33,946 nt of DNA. Source: Bdellovibrionota bacterium. GTDB lineage: Bacteria; Bdellovibrionota_C; UBA2361. Of the stretch, positions 21,957 to 25,861 are shown piece after piece. The notes below the pieces were generated by a model. That model worked only from the letters and a program-made list of their open reading frames with translations. It made no database searches and was not told where the DNA came from. The stretch is taken from positions 1 to 33,946 of the forward strand of contig JBILDU010000026.1 in NCBI GenBank assembly GCA_044352465.1, written 5' to 3'. How positions within the stretch are numbered: the first letter of the stretch is position 1; each line of letters opens with the position of its first letter. The translations under genes were made by a program, and so were the position numbers.

Positions 21957-23660
21957 CTAGAGATTCCGCTGTACCTCTTGGAGGACGGTGGGGAGCCGGG
22001 TAACGGGAGCTTCGCGGAAAAGACCGTTAGCGGCGCGAGCGATTTTCTCAAGATCGGAGAAATCGATTTCGTCTCGATCGATCCCCACGATGATGAGATT
22101 GACGTCGTACTGAACGAGCTTGGTGTTGAGCGAATCGATGAGTCCTTGGAGCGTTGATTCTGAGTTCTTGTCTTGGCCATCGGTGATGACGAGGATCGAC
22201 TTTCGGAACGAGCGGAGATCGGAGGATGCGATAAGTTCCATGGCCGCCCGGATGCCGTCATACACCGCGCTTCCGCCGAGCGACTGAATCGGATCGAGTG
22301 CGCGTATGACTGCGCCGCTATCGACCGAGAAAGGCGACTCCACCTTGGCGGTTGTTGAGAAGGTTACCAGCGCTTTCTTGTCTCGCTCGGGAAGTCGGGC
22401 CACCAAATTGCGGATAAAATCCTTCGACAGCCGCAAATTCTCCCCCTCCATACTCCCTGAGTTGTCGAGAACAACCGCGAGCGCTGCGGGACGTTTGAGT
22501 TCACCCCACCGCTCCGTCAGAAGCTTGAGTGCCGAGCCCTCTGCCGGCGGGAAGGTCTGCGAGAGTGCGCTGAGCTCTACTCCGAATTCGGGGGTGAGGG
22601 GGGGCACCGCTGCGGGTGAGTCCTTCAGGCGGAATCCTTTGGCTTGGGCGGCCTTCTGCGCCGCCGGGGAGGTCATCACTTCGCGGAAGAGCCGCAGGAT
22701 GGCTTGTTGGGCGGGTGTCACCCAATCGGCTTTCGAGGTGCACAGTTGATAGTCTTGTACCACCGAGCCCTCCTCAGGGTAGAGCGCCGTGAGCGCCGGT
22801 GCTCCCGGCGCGCGGTTGGCGTTATAGAGGGCAAGCTGCTGCTCGGTTGTCAGGGTGAAGCGGATTCGTTTCGTGGTAGCTCGAGCGGTGCGTTCGAGGA
22901 GGAATGCCTCGCTCAGACTGTAGTTTGAAACAACATCTTCGAACCGTTCGAGCCGCTTGAGGGTCAAGCCCCGTTCAATCCCGTCACCTGTCAGCGGTGC
23001 TGGGCTATTTGCCGCGAGGTAGGTGAGGAGGAGGAGGCTATCCATGCCGGAGACCGAGGCGTCCGGGGCTGCATGCGAGTAGGAGAGGTAGCCGGCATCG
23101 GGATTTTCGGCTGAGGTCGCCAGTTTGGACTCGAATATTTCCCGCCAAGAGAAGCGGTGGGTCGATGTATTAAAGAACTCCCGATTTTCAGGTCGAGTAG
23201 CTGCAACCACCGGGGTGCTAAAGAGCGGCAGGCAGTCGGTCTGTTCCGCGCCGAGTCCGTGGAGCGACGAATTGACGAGATTCACGAGCGAGGTCGAGGA
23301 GGTAAGCCACGCTTCATTTTTAAACTCCCCTGAGGCGATTTTACGCGCGGCGATGATCCCGATCTCGGAGATAAGTTCGATCGTTATCTTCGTTCCATCG
23401 GGGAGCACCGGGTGGGCCAGGTAGAGCTGCTCTTTGAGTTCGCTCAGGTAGCTACGCAGCTCCGGTCCATGGACGATCCGTATCGTTGCCGACTTCACTG
23501 CGGGGGCGGGCTCCTCCTGGCGCTCGCATCCCGCGAGAAGGAGAGCGCTTGCTGTCAGGGCAAGCAGACTGGAGACAAACGGGGTGGTTGGGCGGCATCT
23601 CCACCGCACTCGCTGTTCCTTCGTCACCATGTGGGGCACCTTTTCGTACTTCACGTCCAT
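21957..23660 (-). CDS. lipoprotein with solute-binding-like domain and C-terminal VWA domain
   Basis: Lipobox LLLAGC, SBP-like region (LYPEEGS), MIDAS DNSGSM, ITDG. Start codon uncertain (23660 or 23630). Confidence 0.85.
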   Translation of the reverse strand: MDVKYEKVPHMVTKEQRVRWRCRPTTPFVSSLLALTASALLLAGCERQEEPAPAVKSATIRIVHGPELRSYLSELKEQLYLAHPVLPDGTKITIELISEIGIIAARKIASGEFKNEAWLTSSTSLVNLVNSSLHGLGAEQTDCLPLFSTPVVAATRPENREFFNTSTHRFSWREIFESKLATSAENPDAGYLSYSHAAPDASVSGMDSLLLLTYLAANSPAPLTGDGIERGLTLKRLERFEDVVSNYSLSEAFLLERTARATTKRIRFTLTTEQQLALYNANRAPGAPALTALYPEEGSVVQDYQLCTSKADWVTPAQQAILRLFREVMTSPAAQKAAQAKGFRLKDSPAAVPPLTPEFGVELSALSQTFPPAEGSALKLLTERWGELKRPAALAVVLDNSGSMEGENLRLSKDFIRNLVARLPERDKKALVTFSTTAKVESPFSVDSGAVIRALDPIQSLGGSAVYDGIRAAMELIASSDLRSFRKSILVITDGQDKNSESTLQGLIDSLNTKLVQYDVNLIIVGIDRDEIDFSDLEKIARAANGLFREAPVTRLPTVLQEVQRNL

Positions 23661-23763: not shown

Positions 23764-24804
23764 TCATCCTTCGCCGCTATCCTTCGCCCCCGGTTTCCCT
23801 AGGCGAAGAAGTGCTGCTAACGCGCGGTTCCACTGTCGCACTGGAACAGCAGGGTACCCCGCGTAGTCGCCTTTGGAGGTGATATCGCGCACGACACCCG
23901 AGCGGGAAGCAAAACGAGCGCCAGACGCAATCGAAATGTGATCCGCCACGCCAGCGCTACCTGCCAGGACCACCTGGTCGCCGATCACCGAACTCCCGGC
24001 GATGCCGACCTGTCCACACAGGATCGAGTGCCGCCCGATAACCGTGTTGTGACCGACTTGAACCAGATTGTCGATCTTTGTGCCAAGGCCGATCTTCGTC
24101 TCCCCAAAGGTCGCCCGGTCGATGCAGCTATTGGCTCCGATGTCGACCCGGTCGCCGAGCACCACGGTGCCCACCTGAGGGACCGGTGCAAGCCCGAGGG
24201 TAGGGTCGGGGGTGTATCCGAAGCCGTCCGCGCCTACTACCGCACCGTTCTGCACAAGCGAGTCGGCGCCAACAACGCACTCCTCTCGGATGATCGCACC
24301 GGAGTGGAGCACCGTGCGTGCCCCGATGTGCACTCCGGGGTAGAGAACAACATGGGGATGAATCACCACATCATCCTCAATCACGACTCGGGGACCGATC
24401 GATGAAAAAGCTCCGATCGTGACCCTTGCCCCTATTTTGGCGCCGGGGTCGACGTCTGCTTTCGGACTAATTCCTTGGGTGCGTTCCGCGCCCTCAAAAA
24501 AGAGCGGCACGACCTTGGTCATCGCAAGAACGGGGTCGGTGACAGCGATAAGCGGCATCGCAAGCGGAGTCGCTGGAGACACCGCGCGATGATCGACGAT
24601 GACCGCGCCACACCGGAGGTCAGCGAGCACCTTGGTGAGCTGTGGCGAGCTGGCGACACGGCTAAACGTGATGGCGTGGGGGGTCGGTGTGTCGAAGCTA
24701 CACAGACTGCTAATCGGGGTCGTCGCATCTCCGTGAACGACTCCGTTCACAACGCGTGCTATCTCGGAGAGGGGAATAGGAGTTGTAAGGTGTCGACGGG
24801 GCAT
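23764..24804 (-). CDS. lpxD: UDP-3-O-(3-hydroxyacyl)glucosamine N-acyltransferase
   Basis: Hexapeptide repeats, GADGFGY, VPQVG, IGANSCIDR, KIDNLVQVGHN. Confidence 0.96.
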   Translation of the reverse strand: MPRRHLTTPIPLSEIARVVNGVVHGDATTPISSLCSFDTPTPHAITFSRVASSPQLTKVLADLRCGAVIVDHRAVSPATPLAMPLIAVTDPVLAMTKVVPLFFEGAERTQGISPKADVDPGAKIGARVTIGAFSSIGPRVVIEDDVVIHPHVVLYPGVHIGARTVLHSGAIIREECVVGADSLVQNGAVVGADGFGYTPDPTLGLAPVPQVGTVVLGDRVDIGANSCIDRATFGETKIGLGTKIDNLVQVGHNTVIGRHSILCGQVGIAGSSVIGDQVVLAGSAGVADHISIASGARFASRSGVVRDITSKGDYAGYPAVPVRQWNRALAALLRLGKPGAKDSGEG

Positions 24805-24906
24805 CGCAACAACGCTTTTTGATTATTCGCCGAGTACTATAGGAAATCATACCCCTTATGGGAAGGAACGACCGCTCGGAAAGGGGGAACGCAGCCCAAG
24901 ACAAAC

Positions 24907-24938
24907 AAAAAAGCACTCACCCGTTTCCGAGTGAGTGC
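24907..24938 (-). terminator. Rho-independent terminator between tatC and lpxD
   Basis: Minus strand GCACTCACTCG-GAAA-CGGGTGAGTGC-TTTTTT. Confidence 0.9.
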
Positions 24939-25026
24939 CCCGTCTTCGGTAGAGTTTCGAACGCCAGCGGGAGCCATTCGGGAAGCTAAGAACGGGGAGG
25001 GATGGCAGCCCACCAACGAACCCTAC
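24907..25026 (-). ncRNA. candidate small RNA (~120 nt) with C-rich loop
   Basis: Own promoter, a long G-U-rich hairpin starting at the predicted +1, then the terminator. No convincing ORF. Confidence 0.55.
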
Positions 25027-25033
25027 TCTCTCT

Positions 25034-25062
25034 ATGATCATGGATTCAGGGGCGGGCGTCAA
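25034..25062 (-). promoter_or_regulatory. sigma70-type promoter of the candidate sRNA
   Basis: TTGACG (25062-25057), 17 bp, GATCAT (25039-25034). Confidence 0.5.
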
Positions 25063-25072
25063 TAAAACAACG

Positions 25073-25861
25073 TTACGTAGTTTTCGTATTCTCGCCGAGA
25101 GGTGACTGGGGAGCCTCTTTATCCGCTTCTGGGGAGGTGGCCGTATAGCGAACCACCAAGATGCTTAGTCCATAGAGGAGGAGTATCGGCCCCGCCATTA
25201 AAAACTGAGTAAGGACGTCTGGGGGGGTAAGGATCGCCGAGACGATAAAGATGATAACGATGGCGTAGCGGGCTCCCCCAATGAGGGTTTGGGCATCGAT
25301 GATACCGAGACGACCAAGAAAAAAGGCGATGACGGGGAGTTGGAACACCGCACCGAAACCAACGAGGCCTTGAACCATGAGCGCGAGATGCTCACTGATC
25401 CGTACGGTCGGGGTCACGCCGATCGAGATGTACTCCTCTCGAAAGAATTCAAAGGCGAAGGGGAAGACCCACCGGTAACAAAACCAGACCCCCAGGGTAA
25501 AGAGGGTCGTGGTGGAAAAGACGAATGGGAAAGCGAGTCGCCGCTCCCCGGCATAGAGACCTGGAGCGATGAAAAGCCATAGCTGGAGGAAAAGCACCGG
25601 GCTTGAGAGCACAATTCCGGCAAAAAAAGCGACTTTTAGTTTGAGGATGAATGCCTCGGCCAGGCCGGTACCGATGAGGATGTTGTCCGGAAAGGCATCA
25701 AAATAGGGGCGCGAGAGGAAATCAAATATCTCAGTGGTAAATGAATACGCAACGATGGCACCGACGAGGATGGCGAGCAAAGAATTGACGAGTCTGCGCC
25801 GCAGCTCGCGAAGATGCCCAAAGAGATCCATGTCACCGATTTCACGGGGCGGGGTAGACAT
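25073..25861 (-). CDS. tatC: twin-arginine translocase subunit TatC
   Basis: HLRELRRRL, EAFILKLK, QLWLFIAPGLY, FQLP, AILTPPDVLTQ. Confidence 0.97.
   Translation of the reverse strand: MSTPPREIGDMDLFGHLRELRRRLVNSLLAILVGAIVAYSFTTEIFDFLSRPYFDAFPDNILIGTGLAEAFILKLKVAFFAGIVLSSPVLFLQLWLFIAPGLYAGERRLAFPFVFSTTTLFTLGVWFCYRWVFPFAFEFFREEYISIGVTPTVRISEHLALMVQGLVGFGAVFQLPVIAFFLGRLGIIDAQTLIGGARYAIVIIFIVSAILTPPDVLTQFLMAGPILLLYGLSILVVRYTATSPEADKEAPQSPLGENTKTT

Follow-up and report, generated by a model that had tools for sequence, protein, structure and literature searches.

The window, by which we mean the whole 33,946-nt stretch of DNA analysed here, carries tatA/B (26218-25862), tatC (25861-25073) and lpxD (24804-23764) on its minus strand, and a gene check bore out the names that the original prediction had given to tatC and lpxD. 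The element that is the subject of this report occupies positions 25062-24907 of the same strand, starts 11 nt past the tatC stop codon, and consists of a promoter-like site, a G-U-rich long hairpin and a terminator capped by GAAA and ending in a U run. Upstream of the element lies tatC, as it does in only a minority of the relatives; downstream lies lpxD, a conserved neighbour. Beyond lpxD, again on the minus strand, the product of the next gene (21957-23660) is 567 aa long, contains a VWA domain and gives a weak match to a solute-binding protein. In other Gram-negative bacteria lpxD is usually followed by fabZ-lpxA, which do not follow it in the window.

A promoter scan placed the -35 region of the element at 25057-25068 of the minus strand, where the T-rich GTTTTA (25068-25063) runs into the hexamer TTGACG (25062-25057), and the -10 hexamer GATCAT at 25034-25039, after a spacer of 17 nt. 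The predicted 5' end of the RNA lies at about 25029-25026. Across positions 24500-25400, two promoter-like sites were found where 0.3 were expected from shuffles. In the minimum-energy fold, an interrupted, G-U-rich long hairpin spans 24951-25029 and bears a single-stranded apical loop of 24 nt (24978-25001), closed by the arms GCCAU and AUGGC. Two boxes can be distinguished in this region: box 1, (U)CCCUCCCC, at 25002-24994, of which CCCUCCCC itself opens the loop at 25001-24994, and box 2, AGCUUCCC, at 24987-24980. A short single-stranded linker of the CCGAAGAC type (24942-24950), in which our alignment shows a ACCGAAACU-like sequence to be kept in many homologues, leads from the main hairpin to an intrinsic terminator at 24907-24941. 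The terminator comprises a GGGGCAC...GUGC stem of 14 bp (24941-24910), a GAAA loop and a U run that ends at 24907, and marks the predicted 3' end of the RNA. The original prediction had described each of these parts on the minus strand (TTGACG-17-GATCAT, the long G-U hairpin, a 24-nt loop starting with the box 1 sequence and the GAAA-capped terminator), and all of them lie where it had placed them.

The fold energy of the element is -51.8 kcal/mol (z = -2.5), and five of 200 shuffled sequences fold as well or better; taken alone, the single-sequence fold is only modestly unusual. So modest a z score, together with a position only 11 nt after the tatC stop in the window, would fit a reading in which there is no separate RNA gene at all, but rather the 3' UTR of tatC with its terminator, a chance fold or a small protein gene. 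The element nevertheless stands above chance, because genomes throughout the order carry the same architecture, once each, its stems covary and its loop is invariant, as set out below.

A search of the whole window against Rfam 15, whose families include 6C, RsaE, 6S, SRP, tmRNA and RNase P, gave no match at the gathering score. At E <= 10, the region 24700-25200 drew three junk matches, to two miRNA families and one CRISPR repeat, all of them on the terminator and far below the cut-offs. We rejected 6S RNA as an identity for the element, because the large loop is apical rather than an internal bubble and the predicted RNA is 118-148 nt long among 62 homologues, against about 180 nt for 6S RNA; the 6S model (RF00013), which responds in only five of 14 control genomes, had no match at the element or anywhere in the genome. 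SRP RNA, of which a genome normally has one copy, was likewise rejected, the genome having its own RF00169 match elsewhere (54.4 bits, positions 68579-68672 of contig C97). A dispersed repeat or mobile element could also be dismissed, since the window's own genome (a 3.13-Mb assembly, 94.9% complete) has a single copy and each positive genome a single model match.

The distribution of the element was examined at several depths. In a DNA search of 60 relatives, identity in the loop region was 75-96% for many families belonging to the same order, which was not true of the flanks. When 185,579 species genomes were scanned for the exact pattern, 44 matches came up, 43 of them in metagenome-assembled genomes labelled Bdellovibrionota, Bdellovibrionales, Oligoflexia, more loosely as delta-/Proteobacteria, or simply as 'Bacterium'. 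The remaining match, on a Paeniglutamicibacter contig (L043), was set aside as due to chance, the surrounding architecture being absent. For a sample of the phylum we used 124 genomes, 91 from the order and 33 from other orders of the class. At E <= 0.001, a covariance model, R1 (138 positions, 35 pairs), had exactly one match in each of 66 genomes among the 91 from the order; at E <= 0.01 it had none in the 33 others. The loop motif CCCTCCCC-N3-12-GCTTCCC was present in 70 of the 91 genomes and in two of the 33 outside the order; a reversed-pattern control gave seven matches over the 124 genomes.

Some of these matches were discarded. Model matches without the loop were treated as false, namely a terminator-only match in genome G024 (L117), which is one of the 66, those at L131 (G035), both in L132 (G028), and a minus-strand match in L102. 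The motif matches in the two genomes outside the order (G096 and G120) were attributed to chance, a judgement made from the matched letters only, as were second motif sites in two genomes (G043 and G085), where the hairpin is absent, and six motif matches in viral contigs, where the architecture is absent.

Seven motif-positive genomes were missed by R1. The five that were inspected (G007, G009, G026, G006 and G031) all have the hairpin, the -35/-10 pair and the U run; the other two (G027 and G037) are counted by loop motif alone. With model and motif combined, the RNA is found in 72 of the 91 genomes and in 16 of the 21 families of the order. Neither approach found it in families f8, f10, f14, f20 and f21, which together hold ten genomes. 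Several of these ten are small (1.5-2.5 Mb), and in three of them (G011, G013 and G023) no such element is seen in the region upstream of lpxD. Four of the inspected genomes represent a minimal form, in which the main hairpin leads directly into the U run and the inspected locus has no second hairpin (L138 in G007, L134 in G026, L155 in G006 and L153 in G031). In these variants, which are missed or weakly scored by the two-hairpin covariance model, the loop-bearing hairpin seems to double as the terminator. Judged from the genomes, the element is a conserved RNA family outside Rfam that is specific to a single order of uncultured bacteria, most of them from fresh water.

The structure was assessed with two alignments, A1, which holds 45 distinct sequences, and A3, a model-based alignment of the 62 distinct homologues. 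When folded singly with the loop held unpaired, all 45 A1 sequences took one common shape, in which a long hairpin encloses the loop and a terminator hairpin follows, and these single-sequence folds, which are independent of the model, agree with the covariance model. Paired cells made up 86.2% of A3, compared with 61.8% in column shuffles and 36-44% when the partners were slid by 1-3 columns. The covariation score of A3 was 0.642, against 0.230 for the shuffles, and was reached by none of 500; slid versions scored no more than 0.149. Changes on both sides were seen in 32 of the 35 A3 pairs, among them every one of the 23 main-hairpin pairs, in an alignment that was fitted to the model, that draws more than half of its 62 sequences from a single family (f9), and in which relatedness inflates such counts. 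Pairing fell to 76.4% on the complementary strand, and G-U cells (253) greatly outnumbered A-C cells (53) in A3; this strand therefore suits the fold better. RNAalifold, applied to a plain MAFFT alignment, recovered the terminator only, and the main stem comes from a structure voted from the single-sequence folds and from realignment with the covariance model.

The conserved letters are concentrated in three places. Among the 45 sequences, the near-invariant columns are box 1, UCCCUCCCC, box 2, (CUU)AGCUUCCC, and a GGGGC at the 5' base of the terminator. The terminator stem covaries while its GGGGC base is nearly invariant, and the four G's are conserved beyond the need of the stem. The apical loop measures 24-30 nt across the homologues, and at least 16 of its nucleotides stay the same between families in which stem sequence has diverged completely. 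We regard the loop as the functional part of the RNA, because the hairpin varies freely as long as it stays paired, the loop does not, and the minimal variants keep just the hairpin, the loop and the U run. No conserved reading frame was found across box 2, the best frame being open in 26 of the 62 sequences, and the RNA is, by prediction, non-coding.

The region in front of the RNA is conserved as well. In 60 of the 62 homologues, TTGAC(A/G/C) stands 17-18 nt before (C/G)AT(C/A)AT and is preceded by GTTYTA, and a genome scan found this extended motif to be unique in the window's own genome. The upstream gene, by contrast, varies: it encodes a protein of about 330 aa at 38 loci and TatC at 11, and differs from locus to locus at the remaining 13. 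Because the promoter is conserved while the upstream genes vary, it would belong to the RNA and not to the 3' UTR of another gene. The RNA is thus predicted to be an independently transcribed species of about 120-130 nt, with its own sigma-70-type promoter and its own intrinsic terminator.

Two features of these loci may be recorded in passing. The upstream protein of about 330 aa is conserved and lies on the strand of the RNA (for example L080:446-1438(+), L124:2272-3213(-) and L109:2245-2886(-), with 35 further loci); no Pfam family was found in the three representatives tested. The promoters themselves carry additional sequence in some lineages. Many of those in genus g11 (e.g. L088-L095) read TGTTT(T/G)-TTGAC-(G/A/C)CAAACA around the -35 position, and the imperfect inverted repeat TGTTT...AAACA could be an operator for a dimeric regulator. 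In several families CCCGAT or CCCCAT is found just before the -10 hexamer, which we take to be reminiscent of sigma-32-type -10 regions; a looser sigma-32-like promoter pattern, searched in the window's own genome, gave no informative gene set. The window's own promoter has neither the right half-site of the repeat nor the CCC.

Taken with the rest of the evidence, the variable upstream gene makes it highly improbable that the element is a tatC 3' UTR with its terminator, a chance fold or a small protein gene. The RNA and its promoter are conserved although TatC is encoded upstream at only those 11 of the 62 loci; the covariation is strong and there is no conserved frame; and the element is single-copy, hence not a repeat. 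The original prediction of an unannotated, lineage-specific sRNA gene is therefore well borne out, with 72 positive genomes in the order, no model match in the 33 genomes elsewhere and no Rfam match. Nor was any of the outcomes seen that it had named as refuting: the promoter kept in nearly all homologues beside differing upstream genes would indicate a 5' end independent of the tatC 3' UTR, stem and loop are conserved, the stems covarying around an invariant loop, and the RNA matches no known Rfam family and is no dispersed repeat.

It is on the downstream side that the gene neighbourhood is constant. An ORF of at least 100 aa lies within 700 nt downstream at 57 of the 62 loci, and at 50 of these 57 it is lpxD, on the same strand as the RNA. 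In family f2 (five loci: L108-L111 and L113) the RNA does not adjoin lpxD; instead, a convergent threonine ammonia-lyase gene ends 3-29 nt after the terminator, which may serve both the RNA and that gene. The loop of the f2 RNA reads CUCUCCCCUCCCCCUUACUUAGCUUCCCC. The other two downstream ORFs had no NCBIfam match at E <= 1e-10. The RNA is tied to lpxD and not to tatC, an association that the original prediction had missed, and the tightness of the linkage suggests a functional or regulatory tie to the envelope and lipid A synthesis.

This linkage brings in a different explanation, namely that the element acts in cis on lpxD, as a 5' leader or an attenuator, or that the RNA has a dual function. 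In that case transcription would stop at the terminator unless a signal permitted read-through into lpxD; the signal could be a factor that binds the C-rich loop, or pairing between the loop CCCC and the terminator-base GGGG, and the terminated product could act in trans. Such a role would account for a same-strand lpxD that stays in place downstream while the upstream genes vary, and the spacer between the terminator and the lpxD start (22-339 nt, median 103.5 nt) can be as short as 22 nt. In addition, hardly any variation is seen in the GGGG at the terminator base or in the CCCC of the loop, a hint that the loop may act within its own molecule. Several observations speak against it, however. 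At the five f2 loci the RNA is not a 5' leader, because the gene that follows is convergent and there is nothing to lead. In the window, a promoter-like site, TTCCCA-17-TATAGT, was found by the promoter scan at 24836-24864 of the minus strand, in the spacer between the terminator and lpxD and outside the RNA, with the -10-like TATAGT 32 nt before the lpxD ATG. Among the 50 loci with lpxD downstream (within L075-L130), 31 have a TANNNT hexamer with its end 5-9 nt ahead of the lpxD start, compared with eight at a control offset, and an SD-like motif precedes lpxD at only four, all of these counts depending on gene starts, of lpxD as of other genes, that were called by crude in-house heuristics. 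It appears that lpxD has its own promoter and that its mRNA is often leaderless.

The terminators, which are strong and conserved, long, GC-rich and followed by 5-10 U, do not favour a leader either. When truncated transcripts were folded with a method blind to pseudoknots, the 5' arm of the terminator paired with the loop in only five of 62 cases, and no antiterminator pairing recurred consistently. A riboswitch or attenuator would always have a same-strand gene downstream and no promoter in between, and this is not the arrangement found here. The f2 arrangement and the separate lpxD promoter together favour a stand-alone sRNA, and we consider a leader, attenuator or dual-function RNA unlikely. 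Some room is left for a role in cis, because a purely trans-acting RNA does not explain why lpxD should be the downstream gene at so many loci.

We lean towards a stand-alone, trans-acting sRNA that would work through a seed in its loop. CCUCC is the core of the anti-Shine-Dalgarno sequence; it is contained in box 1, and both boxes end in UCCC or UCCCC. Our model is one in which the long covarying hairpin would do nothing but present the 24-30-nt loop, with the exposed boxes UCCCUCCCC and AGCUUCCC holding the anti-Shine-Dalgarno core. As seeds acting in trans, the boxes would pair with G-rich mRNA segments, for example ribosome-binding sites of the GGGAGG type, and the pairing would alter the translation or stability of those mRNAs. 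It would proceed without Hfq or ProQ, as in other sRNAs with C-rich loops. Models for Hfq (TIGR02383) and ProQ (PF04352) detected neither protein in the window's own genome, which at 94.9% completeness does not prove their absence. The 16S rRNA (RF00177) was not found in the assembly, and the organism's own anti-Shine-Dalgarno sequence could not be read from it.

The search for targets of such a seed covered the window's own genome, with 2355 crude gene calls. GGGAGG or GGAGGG occurs before 125 crude gene starts, compared with 85 internal control windows, so that a pool of possible pairing sites exists. SD-like motifs in general precede 35.5% of the crude gene starts and 17.5% of the internal control windows. 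Runs of at least six G's were not enriched before gene starts (62, against 65 internal windows), and RNAduplex of the loop gave no enrichment at start regions, with a mean of -18.4 kcal/mol for starts and -20.6 kcal/mol for internal windows. Exact complements of at least 9 nt to the loop were found at 583 sites that form no coherent gene set, and a search of the same genome for bipartite G-rich patterns returned nothing. Of three start-proximal candidates, one is a Kup potassium transporter, one a Cache-domain protein and one an unknown protein; they are unrelated to one another and should be regarded as leads only. The claim of a lineage-specific base-pairing regulator has thus fared unevenly: the lineage-specific sRNA gene stands, whereas target prediction in the window's own genome gave no target, and the pairing is something that we infer.

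That the target searches found nothing would be expected if the partner of the loop were a protein or the RNA a decoy. The loop might bind a protein that recognizes C-rich single strands (of the KH type, or Rho), or might mimic the 3' end of 16S rRNA, as the CCUCC in box 1 would allow, and so titrate a factor. An invariant loop on diverged stems is what one would expect of a seed, and equally of a site for a single conserved macromolecular partner. On the other hand, the gene neighbourhood ties no candidate protein to the RNA, the upstream genes being variable. Known sponge RNAs carry many sites, unlike the single binding site per RNA and the single gene copy seen here. We judge a protein-binding or decoy function to be quite unlikely.

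A more elaborate scheme would join several of these elements. In it, the locus would serve two purposes and tie lipid A synthesis to a broader regulon. The amount of transcription arriving at the leaderless lpxD would be determined by the promoter and terminator of the RNA, and the released RNA of about 125 nt, whose loop would mimic the 16S anti-Shine-Dalgarno end, would compete with ribosomes for mRNAs with strong SD leaders. In a lineage where lpxD and many other genes seem to have no SD, expression would in this way shift between SD-led and leaderless messages. We offer this as a speculation and think it decidedly doubtful.

As a candidate trans-acting sRNA, the RNA resembles the known sRNAs with C-rich loops, namely 6C, RsaE/RoxS, RepG and the cuckoo/CcsR RNAs, and is a member of none of these families, because it has no Rfam match, carries both boxes in one large apical loop, is single-copy, occurs in another lineage and is linked to lpxD. 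The 6C RNA has two hairpins, each with a C-rich loop. The RNA described here has instead one long hairpin, with both boxes in a single loop and a separate terminator, and differs from 6C RNA in phylum and in loop sequence. The C-rich hairpin loops of 6C RNA, from Actinobacteria, are described as pairing with several mRNAs without an RNA chaperone (PMC6486639). Our RNA is similarly a small RNA conserved across a lineage, with a C-rich loop, in a genome where Hfq was not detected. In the Firmicutes, the unpaired C-rich motifs of RsaE/RoxS are reported to pair with G-rich regions of their targets (PMC6158497, PMC5419742). The two have in common their own promoter and terminator and a broad conservation within the lineage, but differ in architecture and in lineage; the targets of RsaE are genes of central metabolism, and the linkage to lpxD has no counterpart there.

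Helicobacter pylori has no Hfq, and the loop of its RepG RNA is C/U-rich and is at the same time the loop of the terminator. In the RNA family described here, the seed-bearing loop is the terminator loop only in the single-hairpin variants. RepG is described as targeting a G-repeat in an mRNA leader and thereby controlling an LPS-biosynthesis gene (PMC8295292), and here, too, a C-rich loop lies beside a lipid A gene. We found no similarity between the two in sequence or model, however, and the window's own genome shows no excess of G-repeats ahead of its gene starts. The cuckoo/CcsR RNAs occur in several tandem or dispersed copies, whereas our RNA is strictly single-copy and linked to lpxD. 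In the published descriptions, those alphaproteobacterial RNAs have hairpin loops with an anti-SD-like CCUCCUCCC motif (PMC4615179, PMC8034643) and are linked to DUF1127 genes (PMC8034643).

A literature search on small RNAs of Bdellovibrionota, Bdellovibrio and Oligoflexia and on lpxD turned up nothing on this RNA, nor any description of a regulatory RNA from this lineage. What would be new is the RNA family and its linkage to lpxD; sRNAs with C-rich loops are a kind already known.

Overall, with single-copy conservation across an order, strong covariation and its own predicted promoter and terminator, the RNA family meets the usual standards for a database entry. Its host lineage is known only from metagenome-assembled genomes, and the RNA would offer a way into the study of post-transcriptional control in bacteria whose genome, in the assembly searched, yielded neither Hfq nor ProQ. 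The near-constant place of the RNA before lpxD points to outer-membrane and lipid A homeostasis, and the presence of an invariant, anti-SD-like loop beside an apparently leaderless lpxD raises the question of how the balance between SD-led and leaderless translation may be set in these organisms.
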